Program-made: the position numbers and the translations under genes
Assembly: GCA_964457085.1 (NCBI GenBank)
Contig: CAYWDM010000003.1
Location: 186-64,185, forward strand
Length of the DNA stretch: 64,000 bases
Reading direction: 5' to 3'
Source: an uncultured Pseudomonadales bacterium
Lineage (GTDB): Bacteria; Patescibacteriota; Microgenomatia; UBA1400; PJMF01
Shown here: piece by piece, positions 41,890 through 55,423 of the stretch
Position numbering within the stretch: position 1 is the stretch's first letter
How the letters are laid out: each line of letters begins with the position of its first letter
The notes under the pieces: generated by a model
The model's database searches: none
What the model saw: only the letters and a program-made list of their open reading frames with translations
Told to the model about the DNA's origin: nothing

Positions 41890-43038
41890 TTAAGACTGTT
41901 TCTTGTCACCGAGTCGTATTGCAACCGCATAATCATGAGTTTGAATGTTGCTAGATGAAGTATCTATCATTGCAAGTCCTCCGCCTCCTGGCACGCCATC
42001 GAGTGGGATGCCAATGCCAATTTCAGAACCAGTCAAACTGATTCCGGTAGTGAGTCCGCCGCCGAGTGGAGTACCAGCTCCCACATCAAGTCCAATCTCC
42101 CAATCCTTAGATGTGGAGCTGGTGGTGTATCGACCCTGACGATTGAGTACGGGAGATTTGGCTTTTTTATTTGCCTCCGCTAGGATTAATCGCGTTGCTG
42201 TTGCTTGATCGAGTTTGTTTTTAGTAATCAATAGCTTCAGAATGGTTGTGGTTTGGCTTGAGTCAAGGTTGCCGATGACTTCTGCTAAAACAAGAAATGC
42301 TCTTGATCCTTCAGTGACTTTATCCGATTTTTTAAACAACTTTTTAGCTATTATTTCAGTAGATAATTGTTGATATCTAGTTAGAACAGCCTCAATAGAA
42401 CTTTGTAGAGCTGCTTGCATCAACGCACAGTGTGTAGTTTCAGAGTCTTTTGCGGCGTCACTTACAGCAATATATGTGTCCATGATTTTTTTGTAGTCAT
42501 TGTTTTCAGCATATGTCGCCGAGGCCATTGAAATAGCAGTGGACCACTCCATGCTTGTAAATGTCTTGTCGCTTTTGAATTTCTGTGCAAGGGTGATGAC
42601 ATTTTCTATAGGAACTTGATTGGTTTCAGCGATTACTGCAGCATCAGCTGCATAACTCGGATCCCAACCCAGTGCTTTGGCACTTTCAAATGCTGCGATC
42701 ATTTTCTCCTGAGTTTTAGTAGTTAATTCAGGTCTGTCTGCAACCTGCCAGCCTATTCCGGCAGTTAATTCGCAAATAATTTCATGTGAGAGCCGTATCC
42801 CTCTGAGTTTTTGTGAAAATGTTGGTTTGTATTTTTCGACGAATGCATCGAAAATATCGAGAGCTTTTTCATTTCCACTTAACCAATTGCCAGCTGTAAC
42901 TAAGTTGGTGCTGGCAGCAGCATCCAACTTACGCTTGTCTTTTGTGAATGGATTTTCAATCTGGTGTAGCTGCTCAGTCATAACCATATGATGCCACACT
43001 TCTATTTGAGTCACAACTTTAATGTGGGGAAACTCCAA
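41890..43038 (-). CDS. hypothetical protein with Gly-rich C-terminal region
   Basis: 382 aa; helical N-terminal part, C-terminal GLDVGAGTPLGGGLTTGISLTG...GVPGGGG. Confidence 0.4.
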   Translation of the reverse strand: MEFPHIKVVTQIEVWHHMVMTEQLHQIENPFTKDKRKLDAAASTNLVTAGNWLSGNEKALDIFDAFVEKYKPTFSQKLRGIRLSHEIICELTAGIGWQVADRPELTTKTQEKMIAAFESAKALGWDPSYAADAAVIAETNQVPIENVITLAQKFKSDKTFTSMEWSTAISMASATYAENNDYKKIMDTYIAVSDAAKDSETTHCALMQAALQSSIEAVLTRYQQLSTEIIAKKLFKKSDKVTEGSRAFLVLAEVIGNLDSSQTTTILKLLITKNKLDQATATRLILAEANKKAKSPVLNRQGRYTTSSTSKDWEIGLDVGAGTPLGGGLTTGISLTGSEIGIGIPLDGVPGGGGLAMIDTSSSNIQTHDYAVAIRLGDKKQS

Positions 43039-43045
43039 GGAGAAC

Positions 43046-43083
43046 CAAAAACCCCGCCTGGTTTCCCAGAGCGGGGTTTTTAT
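43046..43083 (-). terminator. rho-independent terminator after rplA
   Basis: aaaaaccccgcctggtttcccagagcggggttttt, near-identical to the rplL terminator. Confidence 0.75.
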
Positions 43084-43121
43084 TTCAATTTCAATCGATC
43101 TGACTCCTTCGGTCGAAAATC

Positions 43122-43862
43122 TTAAGCCACTAAGGCGATTTTAACGCCTGGACTCATGGATGCTGCGATGGAAACTTTAATTGCTTTGCCACGGAGAGCT
43201 TTAAGAGCTGCTTCGAGGTTTTCAACTAATTGTTTACTATCCATGTCGAGTTTTCCAACTACCATGTGTAGTAATGGAGCTTTTTTCTCACCTCGAATGG
43301 TGACCTTGCCACCTTCAAGCTCTTTTTTCTTGAGCTCTGGGTTATCAGTTAAAGTGCCATTCTTTGGGTTTGGCATTAAACCTTTTGGACCCAAGACTCG
43401 AGCAAATTTTGCGAGTTTTGGCATGAATTGAGGTGCACAGACTAAGACGTCGAAGTCGATTGTGCCTGCACCAATTGAGGTTAACAGCTCGTCAGAGACG
43501 ATCGCCACCTTAAGTGTACGACCAGTTGAGTGAGGGAGACTGAGGGTGATATTGGCACCTTCTTCTCTAATCACTGCGTGAAGTTCTAGCGAACCAGTAA
43601 ACGAAGTGTATGAGAGTTTTTTAATTAACTCGATGGCTACTGCTGGCTCGTAGTGTTTGGTCTTATCGACCTTAGAACGAACTGAGTAGTATTTGCGGCT
43701 GCGAGCACTCACTTTAGTGGGTTTTTTGTCCACTGCAGCTACTGCTTCGCCATCTACTATTTCAACTTCACCAGTTTCTGATTCAGATTCTGCATCAGGA
43801 GCGGCGACGATTTTAATTTCGTCGGTCGAAGTCATGTCGGTATTGCGTTTTCTTGATCCCAT
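43122..43862 (-). CDS. rplA: 50S ribosomal protein L1 with ~50-aa acidic N-terminal extension
   Basis: Core L1 similarity (KVAIVSD...VLGPKGLMPNPKNGT...KVTIRGEKKAPLLHMVVGKL) preceded by E/D-rich extension. Confidence 0.85.
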   Translation of the reverse strand: MGSRKRNTDMTSTDEIKIVAAPDAESESETGEVEIVDGEAVAAVDKKPTKVSARSRKYYSVRSKVDKTKHYEPAVAIELIKKLSYTSFTGSLELHAVIREEGANITLSLPHSTGRTLKVAIVSDELLTSIGAGTIDFDVLVCAPQFMPKLAKFARVLGPKGLMPNPKNGTLTDNPELKKKELEGGKVTIRGEKKAPLLHMVVGKLDMDSKQLVENLEAALKALRGKAIKVSIAASMSPGVKIALVA

Positions 43863-43876
43863 ATATTTCCTTTGAG

Positions 43877-44302
43877 TTAGTCGGTAACTTCCACACCCAT
43901 ACTTCTAGCAGTACCGATCACAGATTTGACGGCACTGTCTACATCATTGGTGTTTAGTTCTGTTAATTTTTGCTCTGCAATCTCGCGAGCCTGTGCCATG
44001 GTCAATTTACCCACTGACTTAGTCTTGGGAGTTGCACTTCCAAGCTTTATCTTCAGTGCTTGCTTGATCATGTTTGAGACTGGAGGCAATTTCAACACAA
44101 AAGTGAAAGAGCGATCCTCGAAAACAGTGATCTCGGCAGGAATGACTTGACCACGCTTATCGGCAGTTTTGTCGTTGTACTGTCGCAGAAAGTCCATCAT
44201 GTTAATACCTGCTTGACCCAAAATTGGACCTACTGGAGGCGCTGGAGTTGCACTACCGGCTGGTAGATTTAGTTTTAAGATTGTTTTGACTTTTTTAGCC
44301 AT
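43877..44302 (-). CDS. rplK: 50S ribosomal protein L11
   Basis: KLNLPAGSATPAPPVGPILGQAGINMMDF, classic L11 N-terminal domain; 141 aa. Confidence 0.9.
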   Translation of the reverse strand: MAKKVKTILKLNLPAGSATPAPPVGPILGQAGINMMDFLRQYNDKTADKRGQVIPAEITVFEDRSFTFVLKLPPVSNMIKQALKIKLGSATPKTKSVGKLTMAQAREIAEQKLTELNTNDVDSAVKSVIGTARSMGVEVTD

Positions 44303-44423
44303 TATTTTGTACCTCTATTTTGTTAGTAGCTCGTAGTTTTGTTTGTCCCCGGGCATCAGATAGTCAGTGAATGCGATCTGATGAGAAGCCCCGGCCCTTT
44401 GGACCGCCAAAACCTTGGCTGAT

Positions 44424-45092
44424 TTATACTTTTTGAATCTGCAGAAAATCGAGTTCGACTGGTGTCTCACGACCAAAGATATTGATCAAGACCTCAACCT
44501 TACCCTTACCTTCATCAATTGCGTTAATAGTACCCAAGAAGTCGTTGAATGGCCCGTCCACAATCTTGACGGCTTCACCTTCCACAAAATCAGCTTTGAA
44601 TTGTGGCTCCTTCTGAGTCATGTATTTTTGAATTGCTTCAACCTCATGCTTTGGCAGGGGAGTAGGCTTACTACTCATACCCACAAAACCAGTCACACCC
44701 TGAGTGGTGCGAACTGCCAACCAAGAATCATCAGCCATTTCCATGTTTACTAGAATATAACCTGGGAAAATCTTCTCACTGATGGTTTTGCGTTGACCGC
44801 GGCGAATTTGAATTTTTTCTTGAGTTGGAATTAAAACTGCCAAGACTTTGTTGGTTAAATGCAGTGTTTCTGCACGTTGCTTCAGAGTTTCAGCCACTTT
44901 TCGCTCATGGCCAGAGTAGGCATGAACCACGTACCATTTGGCTTTTTTATTCTCAAGCGTGGAGATAATCACCACATTTGGAGAATCAACTTTGACCTCT
45001 TGTACCTCTGGAGGAACAATGACTTCAGTCTCGATTGTTGTAGCTGCTGCTTTGGCTTTTTTAGGCATAAGATTTCTTTTTATGGTTCTCAA
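44424..45092 (-). CDS. nusG: transcription termination/antitermination factor NusG (with N-terminal extension)
   Basis: NGN domain (KWYVVHAYSGHERKVAETL) and C-terminal KOW (GEAVKIVDGPFNDFLGTINAIDEGKGKVEVLINIFGRETPVELDF). Confidence 0.85.
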   Translation of the reverse strand: MRTIKRNLMPKKAKAAATTIETEVIVPPEVQEVKVDSPNVVIISTLENKKAKWYVVHAYSGHERKVAETLKQRAETLHLTNKVLAVLIPTQEKIQIRRGQRKTISEKIFPGYILVNMEMADDSWLAVRTTQGVTGFVGMSSKPTPLPKHEVEAIQKYMTQKEPQFKADFVEGEAVKIVDGPFNDFLGTINAIDEGKGKVEVLINIFGRETPVELDFLQIQKV

Positions 45093-45188
45093 GGTTGATG
45101 GGGCAATTAGGCTGACACCACAGACCTTTTTGACCAGGATATTGTATCGTATATTTTATGATTTACTAGATATCGTCTCAATGCTAGG

Positions 45189-45413
45189 TTAGCGAGAAAT
45201 TAAACTACTGATTAGTTTTTGAAAGATAAAATCAAGTCCACCAATATAAAGAGCTACAACTGCACTCACACCAATCACTAAAAGGGTGAGGTTGGTAGTT
45301 TGTTGCTTGGTTGGCCAACTCACTTTCTTGAGTTCAGCTACCACATCTTTCATATACTCTGTTAGTTGTCGCATGTGAGAGTGGATTGTATCAAATTCCT
45401 GGTGGTTGTACAC
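45189..45413 (-). CDS. secE: preprotein translocase subunit SecE
   Basis: 74 aa; single C-terminal TM with SecE-like VSWPTKQQTTNLTLLVIGVSAVVALYIG; upstream of nusG. Confidence 0.7.
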   Translation of the reverse strand: MYNHQEFDTIHSHMRQLTEYMKDVVAELKKVSWPTKQQTTNLTLLVIGVSAVVALYIGGLDFIFQKLISSLISR

Positions 45414-47499
45414 CGCGCTGCTTGAGACGCTCCATCATTGAGTTTGCAGATTCATTTTTTGGTGTCTGCATGTTGAGGTTTTGTTTCAAGTGCTCAAGAC
45501 GTCTTTGCTCTGATTCTAGATCACTCGTTTTTTGGGCAGTATTTGGATTTATGTAGCGTGCGTCTTTGCGGCGACTGTCACCAAAGAGCATTGGGAGCAC
45601 TAATAATGCTACAACTATTAAGAGTAGGCCACCAAGAATGAATGGCAATTTAGTGAACAAGCTGGTGATCCAGGCTGGTTTTTGTGTTGTCTTATTATCA
45701 GTTCCGCCAGTTGAATCAACTTTTTTCGTAGTACTGGTAGTTGCAGCTGGACTAACTGAAGGCTTGCTGTCGATAACACCAGAAGTGGTTGATCCAATTG
45801 CTAATTCTGGATCCTCACCAATTTCAGTAGCACTGCAAATGAAGCTGGCTAAGTTGGCTGGTAATCTACAGCGATTTGAATAGCAGCGTAGTCCCAATGC
45901 ACAATCGCTGTTGCCGGCACAGGTTTCATTACACTGCATTTCAGCAGCCTCTGTAGTGAGTTCTGAGCCACCTTTTTCGTTCGAATAAGACTCAATTACA
46001 CGGTACACAGATTTCTTCGCTGGTGCCTTGCAACTAGTATCTGGTTGGTTTTTGGGGTTGCGGCAACGATTCCAGTAACAACTGAGTCCAGCAGTGCACT
46101 CTCTTGAGTCTGCACAGTACTCATTACAACTGCGGTTTAGACCTTTGTCTGGAGCTAAAACACATGAGGTGCTATCAACATTGCCAGCACGGCGACATTG
46201 GTTGTTGGAACAAGTGAGGTTTGGAGCACATTCAGTATTAGAACTGCATGACTCATTACATTGTTTGTAGCTCACTCCACCCACACCTGCACATTTGGGG
46301 ATAAAGAAGCGCACCACACTACTATGTTTACCATTCCATAGCCTGAAATAGTAATTTACTTCAGGATAGAAAGAGTAGAGAGTTTTTTTGCCATCACTAT
46401 AGGTTCGGAAGTTGGTACTATCTGTTACTAAGTACGAGTCACCCAGAGTACTTGTACCACCAGAAACTTCTTTATTTGCGAAATCACGGAAGTCACTGTA
46501 GATACTGACATCGATTGCAGTAACATTTGGGTAACGGTTTTTGTTCCAGAGAACGTATGTTGAGTTTCCGATTGTGCGGTCATACCAACATGCTTCGTAG
46601 GTATACAAGCTGAAGTCTGGGTCATAACCAACTGTTTCACAGGCTTGAGTCAACTCTTGCATAGCTTCAGTTTGGTACCAAGTACAGTTGGCTGGAGTGG
46701 TCGCCACGGTGCGAGTTTTCCAACCATTGGTACATGCACCCCAATCTGAGTAGGTGTAAGCACATTGTTGGAGACAACTCTGCTCAAGTTGAGTGGCATC
46801 TGGGGCAGCGCAAGTTGACGGGTTTGCGGTATAAGTGCGGATTTGTTTACCGTTTTGGCAGCTTGACCAAGCCCCAAACGAATAACTGCAGACATCTTGG
46901 ATCACATTCAATACTACGTTTTCTACGGTGTTTAGTACGTCTTGATTGGCGGTTTGATACCGAGTAACAATTGTTTTACTTTGGTCGAAATCTAGGCGGT
47001 ATGCATTAGTGGAAGCAGGAATCAAGCTGAGGGCCATCAAAGACTCGTTCCCAGAGGTGCTGAATGGGTCACCGACGACATTTGGTAACAGCATGAATTG
47101 ATATTGGTATCCATTTGTAGTGGCCTTGCCATTCCAATCGGCTAAACGTAATTTCGGATTAGTGACTCGGTAGGAAAAACCCGATCCAAATTGTTGGTTC
47201 TCTCCAGTAACTGTCAAATCAAGGGTTAATTGGACGGCACTTACTTGAGTATTATTGGTGTTGATGTCAATCTGAATCGGAGATTCTGTGCCAAGTTTGA
47301 GCGTAGTAGTGGGACTAGTTATGTGCACCACACCATTGGTTACGCTGGCTTGACCTCGCAAATCGGTGTCTTCGCGTAATTGTTTTTGTAACAGCAAGGA
47401 ACTAACAGCTAAAAAGCCAAAAAGTGTTAATATCACCACCCATAAAACAGTGGAAATGGGCTTGGTAAGTAGTGGTTGAGTGCCGAGTGTGCGCTTCAT
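45391..47499 (-). CDS. large secreted/anchored Cys-rich repeat protein with N-terminal cohesin-like module; paralog of 48450-50483
   Basis: N-terminal TM, cohesin-like segment (LGTESPIQIDINTNNTQVSAVQLTLDL). Central region collinear with the paralog (YTYEACWYDRTIGNSTYVLWNKNRYPNV...KCAGVGGVSYKQCNESC...). Four ~25-aa 5/6-Cys modules ending C..NRCR. Start overlaps secE by 23 nt. Confidence 0.55.
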   Translation of the reverse strand: MKRTLGTQPLLTKPISTVLWVVILTLFGFLAVSSLLLQKQLREDTDLRGQASVTNGVVHITSPTTTLKLGTESPIQIDINTNNTQVSAVQLTLDLTVTGENQQFGSGFSYRVTNPKLRLADWNGKATTNGYQYQFMLLPNVVGDPFSTSGNESLMALSLIPASTNAYRLDFDQSKTIVTRYQTANQDVLNTVENVVLNVIQDVCSYSFGAWSSCQNGKQIRTYTANPSTCAAPDATQLEQSCLQQCAYTYSDWGACTNGWKTRTVATTPANCTWYQTEAMQELTQACETVGYDPDFSLYTYEACWYDRTIGNSTYVLWNKNRYPNVTAIDVSIYSDFRDFANKEVSGGTSTLGDSYLVTDSTNFRTYSDGKKTLYSFYPEVNYYFRLWNGKHSSVVRFFIPKCAGVGGVSYKQCNESCSSNTECAPNLTCSNNQCRRAGNVDSTSCVLAPDKGLNRSCNEYCADSRECTAGLSCYWNRCRNPKNQPDTSCKAPAKKSVYRVIESYSNEKGGSELTTEAAEMQCNETCAGNSDCALGLRCYSNRCRLPANLASFICSATEIGEDPELAIGSTTSGVIDSKPSVSPAATTSTTKKVDSTGGTDNKTTQKPAWITSLFTKLPFILGGLLLIVVALLVLPMLFGDSRRKDARYINPNTAQKTSDLESEQRRLEHLKQNLNMQTPKNESANSMMERLKQRGVQPPGI

Positions 47500-47505
47500 A
47501 TACAG

Positions 47506-48366
47506 TTATCTAGTCCATTCTTTAACCATGACTGAGTAATCAAAAATGTCGATCTTTTTATCGTGATTGATGTCATACATCAAATCGGCTGGTGAGCTAT
47601 CAAAGAAGTGCATGCTGAGCAGGTCAAAATCACTTTGGTTTACTAAACTATCTCCGTTTAAGTCTGAATCTGCACAAAAGACATAGTTTGGTTGTAGTTT
47701 AATTTCACAGGCTGGATCCTCAAACATACATGCAGATTTCCGGATACAACCAATTTTCTGTTTCTCGCAACGTTGGCCATTTACTGATACACCGCAGCTG
47801 TATCCGATTGGTGGTGCAATTAAGATGCAAGAACGTCCAGCATCGACTGGTAAACATTCTGTGCCACACCAATCACATTTCAGAGGTCCTTGAGTTGGAG
47901 TGGGGGTGGCTGTTGGCTGTGGTGCTTTACAATCTTGAGAGCAATTGCAGTAGTTTTCACCAAGACCACAAACGCCATCGCCACATTTGGTACAAACAAT
48001 TGCACCTTCGGCACGCATACATTGACCAGTAGTATCTGGCTTGTCTCCAGTTATTTGAGTTAACCCTGAGCAACATTGTGGTTTAGTTCCATCAATAATG
48101 CTTGCTTTACCACCTTCGTATATACAGGGCGGTGGATATGAGTCTACAGCTGCAGTTAGGCTATTTTCTGCGACTACATTTGTACTGGCAGCTCGTCGTA
48201 AATCTTGAGAGCGTGAGACCATTGCCAAGCTAACAACGACTCCAACAGAAAGTATTGTAAGAAATAGTAGCGAAACAACAATTGTTATTGGCAGTTTTTT
48301 AAGATCAGCAGCAGTTTTTTTTGAATCAACTGAGATCGTTTGACCGGTAATTTCAGGCATCACCAT
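47506..48366 (-). CDS. membrane-anchored Cys-rich protein with C-terminal dockerin-like repeats
   Basis: N-terminal TM; Cys-rich body (KCGDGVCGLGENYCNCSQDC...). C-terminal duplicated Ca-binding-loop segments DLNGDSLVNQSDFDLL / DINHDKKIDIFDYSVM. Confidence 0.6.
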   Translation of the reverse strand: MVMPEITGQTISVDSKKTAADLKKLPITIVVSLLFLTILSVGVVVSLAMVSRSQDLRRAASTNVVAENSLTAAVDSYPPPCIYEGGKASIIDGTKPQCCSGLTQITGDKPDTTGQCMRAEGAIVCTKCGDGVCGLGENYCNCSQDCKAPQPTATPTPTQGPLKCDWCGTECLPVDAGRSCILIAPPIGYSCGVSVNGQRCEKQKIGCIRKSACMFEDPACEIKLQPNYVFCADSDLNGDSLVNQSDFDLLSMHFFDSSPADLMYDINHDKKIDIFDYSVMVKEWTR

Positions 48367-48449
48367 CTAGCATAGAATCAAGTCAGGGTACAAGTCAATA
48401 GAACACAACAGCCCAAATGATAGATGGGCTGTTGTGTTCTTAAATGCGA

Positions 48450-50483
48450 TTATTTTTGCTCTGGAGTAGAACTCGAAATTGGTCTGCCATAACTCTGACC
48501 TCCAGTTGCAGGAGTTGTGGGAGTTGCGGGACCATTGTTTAGACCAGCAGCTGGTCGAGTTGCAGTTGGCTGTACTGGTTGTGCTGGTTGCATTGGTGTC
48601 GGATTTGCAATCAATGACTGACCAGACTTTGCCTGCAGGGCAGATAGAATCCGTGGTACCCCAAGCACTGCTGCCACAGCAATGATAATAATCCCAAGGA
48701 TTAATGGCACAGCTGCGAATGGTGAACTGGCTTTTTTGGCTGGAGCGGGGGTAGCCTCAGTTTTGTCAGGGAAATCATTAACCAATTTCTTCACAGTGGT
48801 TGGCTTAGCACTTGGTTTGGCACTAACTTTAGGTGAAGGTGACACGTTTAACACCACATTTGCTTTTGGTGTTGGTGAAACGGTACTGGTCACCACTATG
48901 GTTGGACTGACTTTTGCAATTGGCTTAACTGTTGGTCTGCGAGTTGGTCTGACTGTGTCCCCATTATCGTCAACATAGCCACCAGTACCAGTGTCATCAG
49001 TACTAGATGTAGGTGGTTGGCAACGAGTATTGGCTGGGTTTGTCAGCAGACGACATTGATCGTTGTAACAGCGGAGATTGGCTGGGCAGTCGCTATTGGT
49101 GCTACAACTCTTATTACAGTCAACTACAACACCTGGCTTCACTATGGTTCTGCAAGAGACATCCTCAAGACTTTGAGAGTTGCGGCAGCGGTTGTACCAG
49201 CAAGTAAGTCCATTTGAACACTCGCTACTGTCTGCACAATATTTGTTGCAACTGGTTGTGGTGGTAGTGACACTTGAGCAGCTCTGGTCGTCGGTTTTTT
49301 GAGGTGCACGGCAGCGGTTGTACCAACAGGTGAGACCGTCGGAGCATTCGCTGTTGTCACTACAGTATTCATTACAACTGCGTTTAATACCTTTGTCTGG
49401 AGGCAACACACAACTAGTGTTGTCTTGATTGTTGATACGGCGACACTTACTGTTGTAACAATATAAGTTGGTAGCACATTCATCGTTGTTGCTACATGCC
49501 TCATTACATTGTTTGTAGCTAACTCCGCCAACTCCAGAGCATTTAGTTACTTTGTAGGTGGTGATTGCACTGTGTCGATTATCGTAGAACAGTCGCAAAT
49601 AATAAGTAATTTCTGGATCAAAGGTAAATGCACCTTTACTGCTGTTGTACCAGCGGAAATTGGTGCCATCAGTCATGGCGAAGCCATTACTGAGTGGTTT
49701 TGGATTAGTCACATCCTTATTTGCATACTCACTAAAGTCGGCTTTAGTGCTAATGTCTACAGATTTGATGTTGGGATAACGGGTGTTATTCCAGACGATG
49801 TATGTAGATGAACCATTTGAGCTATAGTTCAAACAAGCTTCGTAACTATAGACAAAGAATTCTGCGTTAGTGGGGACAAGAGTGGGTGTTGGAATGATTG
49901 CCACATCAGCAATTTTTACATCCAAATCTGTATGTAAACTAACTGCATCAGTGGATTCTCCCTGAGCACCAACAGTAGTATCTTCTTGAGAAAAGGTGAC
50001 TCTAGTTGAGTCCGATTTTTGTAGTGCTTTGAATGTTGCTGTCGCTAAGACTCCTTGGCCGGTTAAATAGGGTGGGTTGGCATTTGTTGGGACAATTACA
50101 GAGTATGAGGCAATGCCAGCAGCTCCGTTGACAGAGTTAATTAGTTCTTGTGCTTGAGAGGCAAACGCACCCTTTTCAATCTTTATTAACTCTAGATAAC
50201 TTTTGTCATATCGCAAGCCAACGTCCACAGCCTTAACTAAATTGGCATTGGTGTTAATATCAACTTTTACGGTAAAAATTTGTCCTGGGCCAACTGTTGC
50301 GTTTGATGTGGTTAGTCCTAATGTGGTGGCTGGCGCAGCTTTGCTACCCAAATCTTGATTCCCACCAAGTAACGCTATGCCTGCAGCCAATCCAACCATG
50401 ACAATAACCAGCAAAAACCCGACGATTGGCACTAACAGTGGTAGATGGGTGTGGTGAAAGCTGTGTGATTTAAGTTTGGGCAT
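48450..50483 (-). CDS. large secreted/anchored protein with cohesin domain, Cys-rich repeat modules and Pro/Thr-rich C-terminal region
   Basis: Cohesin signature GPGQIFTVKVDINTNANLVKAVDVGLRYDKSYLELIKIEKGAF...GVLATATFKAL (cf. CipA cohesin PGDTV.IPV....I..CDF.L.YDPNVLEI.EIEPG). Four C-x3-C-x5-C...NRCR modules. TPTP-rich tail with C-terminal TM. Confidence 0.65.
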   Translation of the reverse strand: MPKLKSHSFHHTHLPLLVPIVGFLLVIVMVGLAAGIALLGGNQDLGSKAAPATTLGLTTSNATVGPGQIFTVKVDINTNANLVKAVDVGLRYDKSYLELIKIEKGAFASQAQELINSVNGAAGIASYSVIVPTNANPPYLTGQGVLATATFKALQKSDSTRVTFSQEDTTVGAQGESTDAVSLHTDLDVKIADVAIIPTPTLVPTNAEFFVYSYEACLNYSSNGSSTYIVWNNTRYPNIKSVDISTKADFSEYANKDVTNPKPLSNGFAMTDGTNFRWYNSSKGAFTFDPEITYYLRLFYDNRHSAITTYKVTKCSGVGGVSYKQCNEACSNNDECATNLYCYNSKCRRINNQDNTSCVLPPDKGIKRSCNEYCSDNSECSDGLTCWYNRCRAPQKTDDQSCSSVTTTTTSCNKYCADSSECSNGLTCWYNRCRNSQSLEDVSCRTIVKPGVVVDCNKSCSTNSDCPANLRCYNDQCRLLTNPANTRCQPPTSSTDDTGTGGYVDDNGDTVRPTRRPTVKPIAKVSPTIVVTSTVSPTPKANVVLNVSPSPKVSAKPSAKPTTVKKLVNDFPDKTEATPAPAKKASSPFAAVPLILGIIIIAVAAVLGVPRILSALQAKSGQSLIANPTPMQPAQPVQPTATRPAAGLNNGPATPTTPATGGQSYGRPISSSTPEQK

Positions 50484-50491
50484 ATATACTT

Positions 50492-51412
50492 TTATGTTCC
50501 TATAAGTTGAGTGATGATTGCGTAGTCAATTGCATTGATTTTGCCATCATGATTGAGATCCGCTTCTGGCAAAATTGAAACTGGACGTAAATATGCAAAC
50601 ACTAACAAGGCGACATCTTGGCTGTCGACAGCACCATCGTGATTAAGGTCGCCTGTTTTATACCCAATTGGGGTAGTGGGGGTAGGACTGGCAACTCCAG
50701 AGATGGTTGGGGTGACAGTTGGGGCATTGGGACATGCTGTCATATTTGTTGACCATGTGCCGTTTACAGCTGGACAGCAATACAGACGATTGCCGCAAGA
50801 CTCGGCACGACCTACAGCATTACAGGTACTGTCAGTCGAAGTACCGTCAGATTCTGGTGGGTGACAGTTTCGCAATACGCCATCTGTGCCTGGACATTCT
50901 TCTACACAGGGGATTGGTATTGTGGGTGTTGGTGTGCCAGCATTGGGAGTGGGTGTTGGTGTCGAAGTCGGTGCGGGTGTCGGAGTTGGTGTCTTGGTGG
51001 GAGTGGGACTTGCAACATTAGGAGTAGGAGTTGGCGTCTTGGATGGTGCAGGTGTTGGAGTGGCACAAGCAGTCATTGCGGTGGTCCATGCACCACCAGC
51101 GGAGGGACAACAGTAACTCTTGCCACCGCATGGTTCAACTCTTCCTTTAACGTTACAGGTACTATCTGCTGAGCTGCCATCTGGTTCTGGTGGAGTACAG
51201 TTTCGCAAAACATTATCTTTGCCAGGGCATTCTTCTTTACAGCCGCCAGCTGCGAGATTGTTAGTGTTAAATCCAGCTGCATCCCTGCGTGGATCTTGGT
51301 TTTGTTGCACGAGTACGACTGCGGCGGGAATAGCCACAGCCATGAATACTAATCCAAGCACAATACGGAGTTGGCTTGTATTTGGCTGTTGCTTAGGGTG
51401 TTTAGAACTCAT
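50492..51412 (-). CDS. secreted Cys-rich protein with internal tandem duplication, PT linkers and C-terminal dockerin
   Basis: Two ~48-aa copies (ECPGKDNVLRNCTPPEPDGSSADSTCNVKGRVEPCG / ECPGTDGVLRNCHPPESDGTSTDSTCNAVGRAESCG), TPTPTP linkers. C-terminal dockerin repeats GDLNHDGAVDSQDVALL / ADLNHDGKINAIDYAII. Confidence 0.6.
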   Translation of the reverse strand: MSSKHPKQQPNTSQLRIVLGLVFMAVAIPAAVVLVQQNQDPRRDAAGFNTNNLAAGGCKEECPGKDNVLRNCTPPEPDGSSADSTCNVKGRVEPCGGKSYCCPSAGGAWTTAMTACATPTPAPSKTPTPTPNVASPTPTKTPTPTPAPTSTPTPTPNAGTPTPTIPIPCVEECPGTDGVLRNCHPPESDGTSTDSTCNAVGRAESCGNRLYCCPAVNGTWSTNMTACPNAPTVTPTISGVASPTPTTPIGYKTGDLNHDGAVDSQDVALLVFAYLRPVSILPEADLNHDGKINAIDYAIITQLIGT

Positions 51413-51542
51413 AAAACAAGCGAAAATATTCGCTAATTCATTGAATCATTATCGGCGGTGTTTATCAACTAACAAGAATGTCGTCCTGATGATTCAGTAT
51501 CAAATAATTGGGTCACTTACGTAGTGGACAATTGATAGTCAA

Positions 51543-53618
51543 TTAGGTTCCAATCAAATCAAGCAGTTTCGCGTAGTCGATCGCGTTGATTCGATTATCG
51601 GAGTTAAGATCGGCTTTTGGTTTGGCAGATGCTGCCTGGCCATATACTGTGATCATCATTTGTACATCTTGTTGGTTAACTATATTGTCTTGATTCAAGT
51701 CACCCAATTTATTAGTGGTTACAGTTGGCACAGTAGTATTGGTTGGCAATGGGGCGGTAGTACTGGTGATGATGGGAGTAACGCTTGGTGTAATGGCTGG
51801 ATTTCTTGTTGGAGTTGGTGAAGGTATTCTGGTTGGTGTTGGGGTAACAATACGAGTTGGGGTTGGTGTGGCTGCAGGGACAGTTGGCGTTGGTGTTCTG
51901 GTTGGCGTAGGGGTGCGTGTGGCTGTCGGTGTGGGAGTGGCTGTTGCCTGTGGTGTGATGGCAGTGCAGTTTGGCCCAACGGTGTTTGAACCATCATTGC
52001 AGTCTGGAATTGCATGTGCTGCACAGGAAGCTGGACAGCCTGTTGCTGGTTTGGTGTTGTCAGTACCCCAGAAACAGTAGCTGTCGTTGTCGCGGTCACT
52101 ACAGGTGATCGCAGCCTTGCTGGCTGGTGGAATAATGTTTTTGCTATAGAGAACTGCTGGGTCACTGGCAGCGACATAAATACCCGCCATGGTTTCTATA
52201 CCTGGGTCACTGGTGATGGTTTTGGCCACAATTTGGTTGTATGCAGTGAGTACATTAGATGTGGCTCCTGGAATAGTGCCTTGCATCACATAGCGGAAAT
52301 AGCCGCCCTCACCGAAAGTGGTGTTCCAGCTGTTTTTTATGATCCAATATTCAAGTCCAGTTGCATTGTCTTTGCCCCAGCCAACAATAGAGATTACATG
52401 CAAACCCTGGTATGGAGCAGTGACTGTTTTGGCGTAAATACCGCTTTGGTAATAATACAAATCTTCAAAGACAGCAATACTTGCTGTGACTGGGCCATGT
52501 TCAATGATTGCACGCTTAATATTTTGGGCAGTGGCATACGTGTCTAAAATATAGTTTGTTTGATCTTTCCAGACGACTGCAACCGCTTCTTTATCTGATT
52601 TATAGAGTGAATCAGCGGTCGACTGTCCACATCTGGGATTTGGACATGCACAGCTGGCAGTTGAGCGATCACATGCCTTGTAGCTGTTGCAGGACTCAGG
52701 GATGATCCCTGAGTTTTTTGCATAGATAAAATAGTCACTCGAAAATCCACCAGTGGCACAAATATTGTTGTAAGCTGTGGCGGTGTTACAAACGATCGCA
52801 TCTTGTTCAGAAAAATCTAAATTGAGTCCAGGTTGGTTAAGGTGGGAGCCGACGTTAGCCTCTAAAGTTGCAGTGCTCCCAAAAACGGTACAAGAACCAC
52901 AATTTGCTTGATCTTTTACAGAGGATACAAAGTTGCCGCCGTGAATTTGTCGCCAGTCATAGTTTGCAGGAAGAGTAACTCCCTGATCAAGCTCCGCACT
53001 AAGGCCATTGCTGCTACCCAAAATACTTGTATTTGCTGAGTAGGTTGTGGTGACATTTGCTGCTGGTTTGCCGGATGACTTCAACTCATTGAGGTTTGCA
53101 ATATTTTGCAGTTGAAATGGCTTGGCGTAGTTTTCCTCTTTGAGACGCTTTGCGGCTACGGGACTATATGAGGAGACCTTCCAGGTTTTTTCAACACTAT
53201 TTTTCCCTGGGGGTGGCACAGCTAGAGCAGCATTCTCAAATTGAGTAATTTTATTGGAGTGAGCAATGATTTGGGTCTGATTTAGGTTAAGACCTGCTTG
53301 ATTAGATTGTTGTTGAATTTGCAGTGTTTTTGCATCAAGACTGTAGTTACCTCCAGAAGCTTGTTGTCGTAAATCTTGGCCAGTTGCGTTCAGTGCAAGT
53401 GCAGTAATGACGCCTACTACTAGTAAGCCTAATAAACCAATCGCTCCAAAAAATTTAAGTTTTTTTTGAGGGTTATGGTGTGGTTGGAATGAGTCTGTGG
53501 CAGGGGGTTGGGTGGTAACAACATGGACATCTGCAGAAACAGGTAAAACTACAGGACTCGGCAAGATATCTGCTAAGTTGTTGTGATTCTGTGGTGATTG
53601 TTGAGAACTGCCAAGCAT
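51543..53618 (-). CDS. membrane-anchored papain-family (C1A) cysteine protease with Pro/Thr linker and C-terminal dockerin
   Basis: Catalytic signatures: Gln/Cys (VKDQANCGSCTVFGS), His (HVISIVGWGKD), Asn-Ser-Trp (WIIKNSWNTTFGEGGYFRY). Linker TPTPTATRTPTPT. Dockerin GDLNQDNIVNQQDVQMM / ADLNSDNRINAIDYAKL. Confidence 0.8.
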   Translation of the reverse strand: MLGSSQQSPQNHNNLADILPSPVVLPVSADVHVVTTQPPATDSFQPHHNPQKKLKFFGAIGLLGLLVVGVITALALNATGQDLRQQASGGNYSLDAKTLQIQQQSNQAGLNLNQTQIIAHSNKITQFENAALAVPPPGKNSVEKTWKVSSYSPVAAKRLKEENYAKPFQLQNIANLNELKSSGKPAANVTTTYSANTSILGSSNGLSAELDQGVTLPANYDWRQIHGGNFVSSVKDQANCGSCTVFGSTATLEANVGSHLNQPGLNLDFSEQDAIVCNTATAYNNICATGGFSSDYFIYAKNSGIIPESCNSYKACDRSTASCACPNPRCGQSTADSLYKSDKEAVAVVWKDQTNYILDTYATAQNIKRAIIEHGPVTASIAVFEDLYYYQSGIYAKTVTAPYQGLHVISIVGWGKDNATGLEYWIIKNSWNTTFGEGGYFRYVMQGTIPGATSNVLTAYNQIVAKTITSDPGIETMAGIYVAASDPAVLYSKNIIPPASKAAITCSDRDNDSYCFWGTDNTKPATGCPASCAAHAIPDCNDGSNTVGPNCTAITPQATATPTPTATRTPTPTRTPTPTVPAATPTPTRIVTPTPTRIPSPTPTRNPAITPSVTPIITSTTAPLPTNTTVPTVTTNKLGDLNQDNIVNQQDVQMMITVYGQAASAKPKADLNSDNRINAIDYAKLLDLIGT

Positions 53619-53684
53619 GCCAAGTTGTTGTGAACAAAACTCATTCTACAGTGTAAGAAACTCGACTCACAATAGGGAACAAGT

Positions 53685-54074
53685 CTATTTGGACACCGGC
53701 TGAATTGGGGCCAGACCGCCAGTACAACGCCAATTAACAGTTGCTTGTTGAGTCACTTCCTGCACTACACACGCAGGATTACAACCAGTCTTTTTCTGGT
53801 CAAGGTCAAACCACCAAGTTTGAGAGTGGGGGTTGTAGAAAGATTCTGTACTTAAATTGCCAAATTTATTACAGTCACTAGCAAGTGCAATTGCACGAGC
53901 TTCATCCTGAGTTAGTTTGCTTGCCGGAGTGGGGATAATGGTTGGTTTGTTCAGATCTTGACTTGGTTGGACGATGTTTTCTGCAGGTGAAGTGTTGGTG
54001 GTGCAACCAGATAATACTGCTCCGGACAATAGCACGGTGATAAGATATGTGAGTTGTCGACTAGATGTAGACAT
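53685..54074 (-). CDS. small lipoprotein, possibly PepSY-like
   Basis: Lipobox LSGC; TQDEARAIALAS...YNPHSQTWWFDLD weakly resembles PepSY domain pattern. Confidence 0.4.
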   Translation of the reverse strand: MSTSSRQLTYLITVLLSGAVLSGCTTNTSPAENIVQPSQDLNKPTIIPTPASKLTQDEARAIALASDCNKFGNLSTESFYNPHSQTWWFDLDQKKTGCNPACVVQEVTQQATVNWRCTGGLAPIQPVSK

Positions 54075-54117
54075 AAGCTAGTTATAGTATACTGCGTACA
54101 GCTCGTGGAGAGCAGCA

Positions 54118-55032
54118 ATGAATATGTTACAAAACTCAAAAATGCCTAAAAAAGTTCGTAAAGCAATTGTCACTGATGCCGGTTTTGCAAGTCGTTATTT
54201 GCCAATAACCAAGACCATGCCGAAGGCAATGCTGCCCCTTGGAAACAGACCAATCATGCAGTTTGTGGTCGAGGAGTGTGTGGAGGCCGGAATCGAGGAG
54301 ATCATTATTGTATCCACTCCTGAGGGCAAGCCAATTTATGAGGATTACTTCAATAATAATGTCAACCGTATTCGCAAACAATTAGCTGAACAAGGCAAAG
54401 AAGATCGATATGAGTCGGTTCAAGATGTGCTCAACTTCCCTAAAATTCATGTGATCACACAAGATCCCAGTTTGCCGTATGGCAACGGTTCTCCAGTAGC
54501 GTCAGCTCAAAAATTTGTGGAAGCAGAAGAAGCATTTCTAGTGCTATATAGCGACGATGTTGTGTTTGGGCAGCCTGGTGATGCCAAAACCTTGGTTGAT
54601 GCTTATGAAAATAATCCTGATAGCGAAGCCATTATTATGGCTCAGGAAGTTGATTCTGATGTAGTTGATAAATATGGCATCATTTCATTTAAGAGCGGTA
54701 CTAAAAATGAACTGAGTCATATCGTAGAAAAACCAAAAAAAGGTACTGAGCCATCGCGCCTCGCATCATATGGCCGTTACCTGATGAAGCCATCCATTTT
54801 TCAGTATTTGAGCTCAAATAATACTGGGCTAGACGGTGAGCTATGGACAGTTGATGCTATTACTCAAATTGCACAGACGAATAAAGTTTTAGTATCAACC
54901 ACTAAAGCACAGTGGGTGACAACTGGTGATCCAGAGAACTATTTCAGAGCACATTTACAGTTTGTGATGACCAAAGAAAAGTATGGAGAAAAAGTTCCTA
55001 CTTGGGTGAAAGAAATCGCCAGTGGACACTAA
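54118..55032 (+). CDS. galU: UTP--glucose-1-phosphate uridylyltransferase-like sugar nucleotidyltransferase
   Basis: N-terminal KAIVTDAGFASRYLPITKTMPKAMLPLGNRPIMQFVVEE matches GalU G-x-G-T-R loop region; 304 aa. Confidence 0.7.
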   Translation: MNMLQNSKMPKKVRKAIVTDAGFASRYLPITKTMPKAMLPLGNRPIMQFVVEECVEAGIEEIIIVSTPEGKPIYEDYFNNNVNRIRKQLAEQGKEDRYESVQDVLNFPKIHVITQDPSLPYGNGSPVASAQKFVEAEEAFLVLYSDDVVFGQPGDAKTLVDAYENNPDSEAIIMAQEVDSDVVDKYGIISFKSGTKNELSHIVEKPKKGTEPSRLASYGRYLMKPSIFQYLSSNNTGLDGELWTVDAITQIAQTNKVLVSTTKAQWVTTGDPENYFRAHLQFVMTKEKYGEKVPTWVKEIASGH

Positions 55033-55423
55033 TCGAGCATTTGGGTGTCACAAATATCGTGTCAATAGTTGGTTTTAAATTGTAATTAGATACAATACAA
55101 ATAGAGCACATTTACAGATTTCCACAGTCAAACGCGAGAGGTGGCAAGTCATTTTCCTCAACAGCTTTTGACAGGGTTCGCTTGTGCGACAGTTCCTTGG
55201 AATTGTAGCCGGCTTACCCACCTGGATTTATTTCCGGGGAAAGAACGTCGCCTCGCGCGCTGGGCTGTGGCACTTTTGTTTGATTTAGAGATGGGCTTTC
55301 CATTTTCACTTCGTCAGTTAGTCATCATTTTGCACACAGTACTTTCAGAAAAATTCCTGATACAATACCTTTTTGTCTCAACTGGATTTATACTGTCCTG
55401 GTAGAAAATAGATGAGATGGATG

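Follow-up and report, generated by a model that had tools for sequence, protein, structure and literature searches.

A cluster of six co-directional genes (G1 to G6, 45391-54074, minus strand) probably encodes a non-cellulosomal cohesin-dockerin system by which a patescibacterium displays proteins on its cell surface, a reading to which we give a probability of about 0.65. The cluster lies in a stretch of 64,000 nucleotides, hereafter the window, and the source bacterium is a Microgenomates-type member of the Patescibacteria (CPR), as placed by its named relatives. Every open reading frame was found at the coordinates given below. The preliminary description of this DNA had listed five consecutive genes followed by a lipoprotein; the genes are real and on the minus strand, but the interval holds six of them and the lipoprotein gene is the first in transcription order, not the last. 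Outside these genes, the 64-kb window contains no dockerin segment, no match to a cohesin profile and no Cys module. Hydrophobic helices are present at the N-terminus of G1 to G5 and at the C-terminus of G1 and G3, in line with the earlier claim that these proteins are membrane-anchored or secreted. Matches to the Pfam families Cohesin, Dockerin_1 and Peptidase_C1 were all obtained, the N-terminal modules of G1 and G3 proved to be cohesin-like and the catalytic Cys and His of the peptidase are in place.

The cluster is directly followed by secE (45189..45374, minus strand; 61 aa counted from its ATG), located 16 nt downstream of G1, and then by nusG, rplK and rplA. The overlap between G1 and secE that had been reported results from the choice of start codon: it exists solely for the longest open reading frame, starting at a GTG at 45413, whereas the ATG of the public gene call leaves the 16-nt gap. 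The tight adjacency itself is real and conserved. The intergenic distances are also short between G4 and G3 (8 nt) and between G2 and G1 (6 nt). A promoter and terminator scan over 42800-55300 returned counts no higher than those of shuffled sequence and therefore has no bearing on the operon structure.

G3 (48450..50483, minus strand, 677 aa), a paralog of G1 with 35% identity over 443 aa, is composed of a canonical cohesin head, a mid module, four 6-Cys modules, a P/T-rich linker and a C-terminal transmembrane helix. Its cohesin (49905..50339, minus strand, aa 49-193) contains the VGLRYDKSYLELIKIEKG block and is recognised by Pfam Cohesin PF00963 with 37.6 bits over aa 61-181 (cut-off 24.1). 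When its profile was compared with the sequences of the PDB, all 11 matches were cohesin-bearing scaffoldins, the first eight at E-values of 6e-4 to 1e-2. G1 (45391..47499, minus strand, 702 aa) is a type-I-like membrane stalk protein in which an N-terminal helix and a TDLRGQA motif are followed by a divergent cohesin (46891..47352, minus strand, aa 50-203), two TSR-like Cys modules and a mid module of about 110 aa, and then by three DPY-like 6-Cys modules with the spacing C-x3-C-x5-C-x5-C-x4-C(+1) (45835..46260, minus strand, aa 414-555), an S/T/P linker, a transmembrane helix (45571..45669, minus strand, aa 611-643) and a cytoplasmic tail terminating in MMERLKQRGVQPPGI. Against the Pfam family Dumpy_DPY (PF21164; cut-off 27), the 6-Cys modules of G3 score 28.6 bits and those of G1 stay below the cut-off with 22.3 bits, but this is a match to a short Cys pattern, which makes a homology to the insect Dumpy module doubtful. 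Nothing credible was found for the mid module in Pfam, NCBIfam and PDB-sequence searches.

The head of G1 is missed by Pfam, PF00963 giving no match even at E<=1, but its family profile matches PDB cohesins at an E-value of 1e-3 and hhalign relates it to the G3 cohesins with a probability of 75%. At the fold level, the modelled head is a nine-stranded flattened beta-sandwich (jelly-roll) superimposable on solved cohesins, and cohesins occupy the top ranks of both fold searches, with 2xdh and 2vo8 among the best structural matches. The predicted structure thus confirms this head as a cohesin jelly-roll, and the proposal that both ~700-aa paralogs carry a cohesin-like N-terminal module holds, by Pfam for G3 and by fold for G1. 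Because the best-ranked entries of the two fold searches are cohesins, a generic Ig-like domain, as hinted by a weak Big_7 match, was rejected. The G1-type cohesin family comprises 519 representative clusters at E<=1e-3, is devoid of Pfam annotation and invariably comes immediately behind the N-terminal helix, at residues ~50-205.

Type I dockerins consist of two tandem segments of about 22 residues, each formed by a 12-residue EF-hand-like Ca loop (D1, N/D3, D5, N/D9, D12) and a helix. Duplicated 12-residue Ca-loop segments, 30 aa apart, are found at the C-termini of G2, G4 and G5, the only open reading frames of the window to possess them. Three dockerins had been announced from the outset; two of them exceed the Pfam Dockerin_1 cut-off (PF00404, 22.9 bits), with 38.2 bits for G4 and 29.8 bits for G5, while that of G2 falls below it (19.5 bits) and is rescued by its family profile (A7), which matches solved dockerins at E-values of 5e-10 to 1e-5. 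The G4 and G5 dockerins, designated type A, share 51% identity and either of them only 26-29% with that of G2, designated type B. G2 (47506..48366, minus strand, 286 aa), located 6 nt upstream of G1, is a predicted exported, Cys-rich protein with 20 Cys and a CDWCGTEC motif, whose dockerin (47509..47676, minus strand, aa 231-286) harbours the Ca loops DLNGDSLVNQSD and DINHDKKIDIFD. G4 (50492..51412, minus strand, 306 aa), located 8 nt upstream of G3, is also predicted to be exported and displays two copies of an 8-Cys module, P/T-rich linkers and a C-terminal dockerin (50495-50662, minus strand, aa 251-306). The Cys-rich parts of G2 and G4 retrieved nothing credible from Pfam, NCBIfam and PDB-sequence searches.

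The third dockerin protein, G5 (51543..53618, minus strand, 691 aa), is a papain-family cysteine peptidase, predicted to be exported, whose Peptidase_C1 domain (52281..52973, minus strand, aa 216-446; Pfam 148.7 bits) is followed by a Cys-rich module, a P/T-rich linker and a dockerin (51546-51713, minus strand, aa 636-691). Its best solved relatives are dipeptidyl peptidase I (cathepsin C, E-value 1e-32) and cathepsin B (E-value 1e-24), over ~240 aligned residues. The C1 assignment made initially is borne out by the alignment of Gln237, Cys243, His407 and Asn429 with the intact catalytic set of both cathepsins. G5 differs from them by a Thr after the catalytic Cys in place of Trp/Tyr (its orthologs have Ala or Trp), by the lack of an assignable exclusion domain or occluding loop and by the addition of the N-terminal membrane signal, the C-terminal Cys-rich module, the P/T-rich linker and the dockerin. 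No I29-type propeptide was detected: Pfam, NCBIfam and PDB-sequence searches gave nothing credible for the 130 aa that separate the membrane helix from the catalytic domain, the lone Pfam match being to a viral envelope family at chance level (E-value 0.09), and this segment is possibly another kind of pro-region. The C-terminal Cys module gave nothing credible in Pfam, NCBIfam and PDB-sequence searches, and the same holds for G6 (53685..54074, minus strand, 129 aa). From its sequence, G6 is predicted to be a lipoprotein, since a lipobox conforming to [LVI][ASTVI][GAS]C (L21-S22-G23-C24; LSAC and LAGC in orthologs) follows a basic then hydrophobic N-terminus. It is found along with the C1 peptidase gene in three of four loci.

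The five exported proteins, G1 to G5, share an N-terminal motif consisting of the transmembrane helix and QDLRQQA, for which no description was found in the searched literature. The site is not a canonical one for signal peptidase I, with a Gln at -3 and a distance of 12-15 residues past the hydrophobic core. If the N-terminal helices are uncleaved, G1 to G5 would stay tethered by their N-terminus and the geometry of the system would be different. At the other end of the stalk, a cytoplasmic C-terminal motif, M(M/L)ERLK(Q/E)(K/R)G, is kept across distant G1-type members and is absent from G3.

The conservation of the locus was examined in 15 loci gathered without reference to dockerins or secE. 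Cohesin-type and dockerin-type genes lie side by side in a common slot in at least 11 of these 15 loci. In related Patescibacteria, 14 loci have a G1-type stalk gene directly upstream of secE-nusG-rplKA, most of them at a distance of -4 to 82 nt, so that the linkage to secE is stronger than could be appreciated from this DNA alone. Three loci with the G1-type protein only (L004, L007 and L018) display an adjoining small protein with a G2-like dockerin, and two others (L003 and L016) have the G1-type cohesin and no type-B dockerin in the slot. In four cases (L009, L011, L014 and P0195) cohesin and dockerin are carried by one chain, resembling adaptor scaffoldins; P0195 is located elsewhere in its genome, away from the secE slot. 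The G3-type cohesin and the C1 peptidase with a type-A dockerin occur together in 4/4 loci and in 0/11 of the others, but these four come from closely related genomes and may represent a single evolutionary event. The passengers differ widely between genomes, including C1 peptidases, LRR proteins and various Cys-rich proteins. We read the pair of G1 and G2 types as the ancestral core, in a conserved slot just upstream of secE, and G3-G6 as an expansion seen in one clade.

The most likely function, we infer, is the Ca-dependent display of a protease and of Cys-rich binders on cell-surface stalks. G1 and G3 would be exported and retained in the membrane through their C-terminal helix, and a single cohesin would be raised above the membrane by the P/T-rich linker and by the disulfide-rich 6-Cys modules, stacked rigidly on one another. 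G2, G4 and G5, exported by a like N-terminal signal formed by a hydrophobic helix then QDLRQQA, would plug into these cohesins in a Ca2+-dependent manner through their C-terminal dockerins. Gene adjacency, co-occurrence and the sequence type of the dockerins point to the canonical cohesin of G3 as the most likely partner of G4 and G5, and to the divergent cohesin of G1 as that of G2. In a predicted fold of the G2 dockerin fused to aa 1-203 of G1, the dockerin helices are at the expected places; the confidence is only moderate for the dockerin part (pLDDT 49-75, with a pTM of 0.60), and these values are scores in which the interface is not visible. The stalks would therefore carry a cathepsin-like cysteine peptidase together with small Cys-rich binding proteins, and likely uses would be the attack on or grip of host or partner surfaces and the scavenging of peptides. 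A proteolytic or host-attachment complex, as suggested in the preliminary description, may be an appropriate reading of the cluster.

Cellulosomes are built on a scaffoldin with tandem cohesins, usually with a CBM, onto which dockerin-borne glycoside hydrolases assemble. In favour of a miniature cellulosome or amylosome devoted to polysaccharide breakdown are the shared use of cohesin-dockerin pairing and the cellulosomal nature of the nearest solved structures. However, no CAZyme family, be it a glycoside hydrolase, a CBM or another, was matched when G1-G6 and the segments left unassigned in them were scanned with Pfam, the scaffolds have a single cohesin each and no tandem array, the lone enzyme is a C1 peptidase and the window offers no dockerin protein beyond G2, G4 and G5. 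This identity was accordingly rejected as extremely improbable, in agreement with the initial view that the cluster is not a cellulosome.

Two other readings accept the modules as real. The dockerins might not bind these cohesins, the proteins acting as independent Ca-stabilised adhesins for host glycans or proteins, clustered with a protease. The pairing is deduced here and the fused co-fold is uninformative on the interface; moreover, Wang et al. 2023 (PMC10633639) speculated that SEML1_0315, an essential dockerin-domain envelope protein of Southlakia epibionticum (Saccharibacteria), targets host-cell glycans. Such independence is nevertheless unlikely given that cohesin- and dockerin-type genes adjoin in most of the loci, that the dockerin type tracks the cohesin type, that both modules share one chain in some relatives, as in adaptor scaffoldins, and that, in all the solved systems retrieved, their closest structural relatives are mutual partners. 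The essentiality of the Saccharibacterium protein (PMC10633639) could also speak for a housekeeping envelope structure, such as a lattice of the S-layer type or one that spans the wall, or else a protein-export accessory, instead of a host-interaction or proteolytic device. This would explain a core gene locked to secE-nusG-rplKA, the slot being strictly kept in 14 loci, as well as the tail motif conserved among distant members, and would agree with the large size of the family. We hold it to be about equally improbable, since the widely varying passengers are typical of interaction or accessory functions, some members (P0195) are located elsewhere in the genome and synteny alone does not demonstrate a functional link to Sec.

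The closest known systems are the cellulosome anchoring scaffoldins and type I cohesin-dockerin pairs of Clostridia, e.g. OlpA/OlpC of C. thermocellum, CohA2-Doc0917 of C. acetobutylicum and ScaB/ScaC/ScaE of R. flavefaciens. Unlike these, the present locus belongs to a Patescibacterium and is fixed beside secE. Its stalks consist of 6-Cys DPY-like modules and are fixed in the membrane by a C-terminal helix prolonged by a cytoplasmic tail, whereas cellulosome scaffoldins use SLH domains or sortase. Pairing outside cellulose degradation has precedents in the R. bromii amylosome (PMC4611034), in the non-cellulosomal modules of Peer et al. 2009 (cited in PMC6487960), and in the cohesins of Archaeoglobus fulgidus (2xdh) and of the C. 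perfringens toxin complex (2vo8/2jh2). Dockerin-bearing peptidases have been reported from rumen metagenomes, with a C10 peptidase-dockerin and with 'protein catabolism' functions. By its description, SEML1_0315 is similar in being a dockerin-domain surface protein of a Patescibacterium with a proposed role in host interaction, but it belongs to a different class and no cohesin partner is mentioned (PMC10633639). In the searched literature, neither a cohesin-dockerin system in Patescibacteria nor a C1 (papain-family) peptidase-dockerin in such a context was found described, and the same applies to the G1-type cohesin family and to the locus linked to secE.

It is conceivable, if on balance doubtful, that the gene at this slot across this whole branch of the Patescibacteria encodes the anchor of a lineage-wide surface assembly platform, combining a cohesin family not recognised before, an N-terminal signal of its own for sorting or processing (helix and QDLRQQA) and a conserved cytoplasmic tail motif, M-M/L-E-R-L-K-x-K/R-G, coupling it to something inside. 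It would amount to a new system of protein sorting and display with which these host-dependent bacteria form their interface with partner cells. Of the versions known, the present cluster, equipped with two cohesin specificities and with a cysteine protease in docked form, would then be the most elaborate.

Binding as predicted would make the pairs a source of orthogonal cohesin-dockerin specificities for protein engineering and of markers to find the surface proteome in CPR metagenomes. The shared N-terminal motif may be the hallmark of an export or processing route specific to the lineage. The analysis also brings to light over 500 surface proteins with a cohesin, a family left unannotated by current domain databases. 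Patescibacteria represent a large share of bacterial diversity and most of them apparently live attached to other cells; to our knowledge, little is known of the proteins at their cell-cell interface beyond type IV pili. The locus constitutes a concrete and testable candidate for this interface, in the form of a modular cohesin-dockerin display with a docked cysteine protease, adjacent to secE in many genomes.

The slot between a divergent NTP_transferase (galU-like) gene, which forms its upstream border, and secE, nusG, rplK and rplA, which follow downstream on the same strand, is filled by six minus-strand ORFs: G6 (53685-54074), G5 (51543-53618), G4 (50492-51412), G3 (48450-50483), G2 (47506-48366) and G1 (45391-47499). 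Intergenic gaps from G6 to secE are 66, 130, 8, 83, 6 and 16 nt. The overlap with secE proposed in the preliminary description amounts to 23 nt, is present only with the longest possible ORF (GTG start) and gives way to the 16-nt gap from the ATG of the public gene call, whose 61-aa product has the same length in all relatives. A promoter-like site with an extended -10 (45385-45412, minus; TGTACA-16-TACAAT, with a TG preceding the -10) falls within the 3' end of G1 and just ahead of secE, which may thus also be served by its own candidate promoter; matches of the promoter scan as a whole were not above chance. In GC content the interval does not stand out from the rest of the window. Directly downstream of rplA, a 382-aa ORF (41890-43038, minus, TTG start) is Gly-rich at its C-terminus and matches no Pfam family; in the related locus L002, an unannotated gene of 320 aa takes the corresponding place.

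Cohesin-like heads had been attributed to the two ~700-aa membrane stalk paralogs, G1 and G3, and both attributions hold, by a Pfam Cohesin match for G3 and by profile matches and predicted fold for G1, in which Pfam finds no cohesin. In hhalign, an alignment of 24 G1-family heads (A4) matched the cohesin profile of the G3 family at 75% probability (E 2.5e-5); by sequence, it matched solved R. flavefaciens cohesins (E ~1e-3). The AlphaFold2 model of the G1 head reached a pLDDT of 93.7 and a pTM of 0.86, and its top 34 Foldseek matches in the PDB were all cohesins. Together, these profile, sequence, model and Foldseek matches show the G1 head to be a genuine though divergent cohesin.

The two heads do not align with each other by BLAST; the proteins share 35% identity over 443 residues, spanning a mid module, the Cys modules and the anchor. 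A pattern search identified three C-x3-C-x5-C-x5-C-x4-C(+1) modules in G1 and four in G3, both proteins having a marginal Pfam match to the Dumpy-DPY Cys module. Each of G1-G5 has one N-terminal hydrophobic helix, and G1 and G3 have a second near the C-terminus. The beta-rich mid module of ~110 aa (G1 aa 295-405, 46285-46617; G3 aa 208-317, 49533-49862; minus) is flanked by an invariant Cys pair, has the consensus ...Y.YE.C......G.S.Y..W...DFRxFAxK...TNFR...YYFRL...C.G, occurs in only part of the family and has no Pfam or PDB-sequence match. Ahead of it, G1 aa 204-290 (46630-46890) form two ~40-aa units (C-x-Y-x-Y-x2-W-x2-C-x-N-G-x-Q/K-x-R-T...C) resembling thrombospondin type-1 (TSR) repeats, their sole match, weak and below cut-off (E 5e-4), being the PTN/MK C-terminal domain of TSR-like fold; relatives carry 0-4 copies. 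At its cytoplasmic C-terminus (aa 687-702, 45394-45441), G1 finishes with SMMERLKQRGVQPPGI. Long Pro-rich tails of distant family members close with the recurring motif M(M/L)ERLK(Q/E)(K/R)G(V/I)xxP, which is absent from G3 paralogs; this points to a putative intracellular binding partner.

The proposal of three dockerin-ended proteins is borne out by Pfam Dockerin_1 for G4 and G5 (above cut-off; G2 falls below it), by the match of the G2 dockerin family profile to solved type I dockerins (E 5e-10 to 1e-5), and by two 12-residue Ca-loop segments, spaced exactly 30 residues, at all three C-termini in a pattern search. Ca-loop segments, cohesin and Cys modules occur nowhere else within the 64-kb window. 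G5 is, as claimed, a papain-family protease, with a Pfam Peptidase_C1 match and Gln237, Cys243, His407 and Asn429 aligned with the catalytic set of cathepsins; the best alignments of this domain are to dipeptidyl peptidase I (E 1e-32) and cathepsin B, and no I29 propeptide is detectable. No known domains were found in the Cys-rich non-protease cargos, and the NCBIfam search of G1-G6 yielded nothing beyond Pfam. A lipobox (LSGC, Cys24) is present in G6, for which searches gave no relatives of known function and no detectable homology. A small lipoprotein gene encoding four conserved Cys stands directly upstream of the C1-peptidase gene in three of four peptidase loci (G6, minus; L002 6602-6988; L016 3200-3589); such lipoproteins could be candidate cognate inhibitors or chaperones of the peptidase.

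Exact window proteins are present on metagenome contigs, and the named relatives ('Patescibacteria group', 'Candidatus Pacebacteria', 'Candidatus Woesebacteria') belong to the Microgenomates group. G3-type proteins are a rarity, numbering 8 in 5.8 billion clusters, and the G1-type head is common, with 519 representatives at E<=1e-3 (216 at <=1e-10), always at residues ~50-205, right behind the N-terminal helix. Sampled G1-family members share the order N-terminal helix, QDxRxxA motif, cohesin, variable inserts, 6-Cys modules, S/T/P linker, TM helix and long Pro-rich tail, ending in most of them in M(M/L)ERLK(Q/E)(K/R)G(V/I).

We compared 18 loci found via G3 or G1 homologs or a Cys-module peptide scan, secE not being a selection criterion. 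Among the 15 with usable flanks that include secE, a stalk protein with Cys modules is encoded immediately upstream of secE-nusG-rplK-rplA in 14 (a 100-aa ORF intervenes in L018), generally with a gap of -4 to 82 nt, and the divergent NTP_transferase borders the other side in 13. One more distant family member lies 2.3 kb from secE and another elsewhere, so that the linkage is strong but not universal. At least 11 slots combine a dockerin-ended protein with a G1-type cohesin. Both modules are on one chain, cohesin N-terminal and dockerin C-terminal, in L009 (1377-3221), L011 (5674-8382), L014 (1338-3029) and the relative protein P0195, an architecture shared with adaptor scaffoldins; such chains would imply multi-tier assemblies in some genomes. 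A G3-type cohesin with a dockerin-bearing C1 peptidase is found in four loci, the one in the window (also recovered as contig L001), L002, L003 and L016, accompanied by the lipoprotein in three, and the remaining eleven lack this set. Because the four are the closest relatives as well, the co-occurrence may reflect a single evolutionary event. Nine loci (L005-L008, L011-L015) have records titled 'uncultured Pseudomonadales bacterium' or 'Opitutaceae bacterium', and a Patescibacteria-type neighbourhood with NusG and L11 68-77% identical to those of the window; these titles are probably generic or mis-binned labels.

G1-G5 also share, 3-8 residues past the hydrophobic helix, the motif Q-D-(L/I/V/P)-R-x-x-A (consensus QDLRQQA; T for Q in G1, G for R in G3), at 47347-47367, 48184-48207, 50333-50359, 51275-51298 and 53358-53378 (minus), respectively. 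No other ORF in the window has it, and ~35 ORFs with unrelated passenger domains carry it in L002-L018. In a predicted structure joining the G2 dockerin to G1 aa 1-203, the helix extends through 'LLLQKQLRE' and the motif falls in a low-confidence linker ahead of the cohesin. The motif differs from the textbook signal-peptidase I site, Pfam and NCBIfam contain no model that matches it, and the literature searched does not mention it; it may serve as a signal for sorting or processing that is specific to the lineage.

From the modules, topology signals, gene order and co-occurrence, we infer that G1 and G3 would be C-terminally anchored stalks, each presenting one cohesin, onto which exported G2, G4 and G5 would dock by Ca-dependent dockerins. 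G4 and G5 would pair with G3, and G2 with G1, because the small dockerin genes each have a cohesin gene as immediate neighbour, at 8 and 6 nt, because dockerin identity is 51% between G4 and G5 and 26-29% between these and G2, and because genomes with the G1-type cohesin alone have G2-like dockerins (tail ...DY(S/T)x(M/L)xxx(W/F)); among the loci compared, such genomes never have the ...INAIDYAxxxxLIG(T/S) dockerin type. The cargos would be one enzyme, the cathepsin-like cysteine peptidase, and Cys-rich proteins.

That cohesin and dockerin modules act independently as adhesins is unlikely, their genes being repeatedly conserved side by side. The link to secE and the conservation of the cytoplasmic tail motif speak for a housekeeping envelope or export-linked structure, but the highly variable cargos make it similarly improbable. 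A mini-cellulosome is ruled out, as the preliminary description had anticipated, by the absence of any GH or CBM family from the cluster and the single cohesin per scaffold.

Cohesin-dockerin pairs outside cellulosomes are established from archaeal cohesins and C. perfringens toxin-complex cohesins, further examples being R. bromii amylosomes (PMC4611034) and rumen dockerin-peptidases, and a dockerin-domain protein was reported as essential in a Saccharibacterium (PMC10633639). The modules themselves would not surprise a specialist. In the literature searched, we found no description of a cohesin-dockerin system in Patescibacteria, of the G1-type cohesin family, of a cohesin-dockerin link to secE, of a TM-anchored stalk of 6-Cys modules or of a C1 peptidase docked in a system of this kind. 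For the proposed assembly, plausible putative roles in this reduced-genome organism would be to attach to or attack a partner cell by means of a surface protease and binders, or to scavenge peptides. A real, testable lead into CPR cell-surface biology is provided by the conservation of the locus across the lineage, by the hidden cohesin family and by the N-terminal motif that the exported proteins share.
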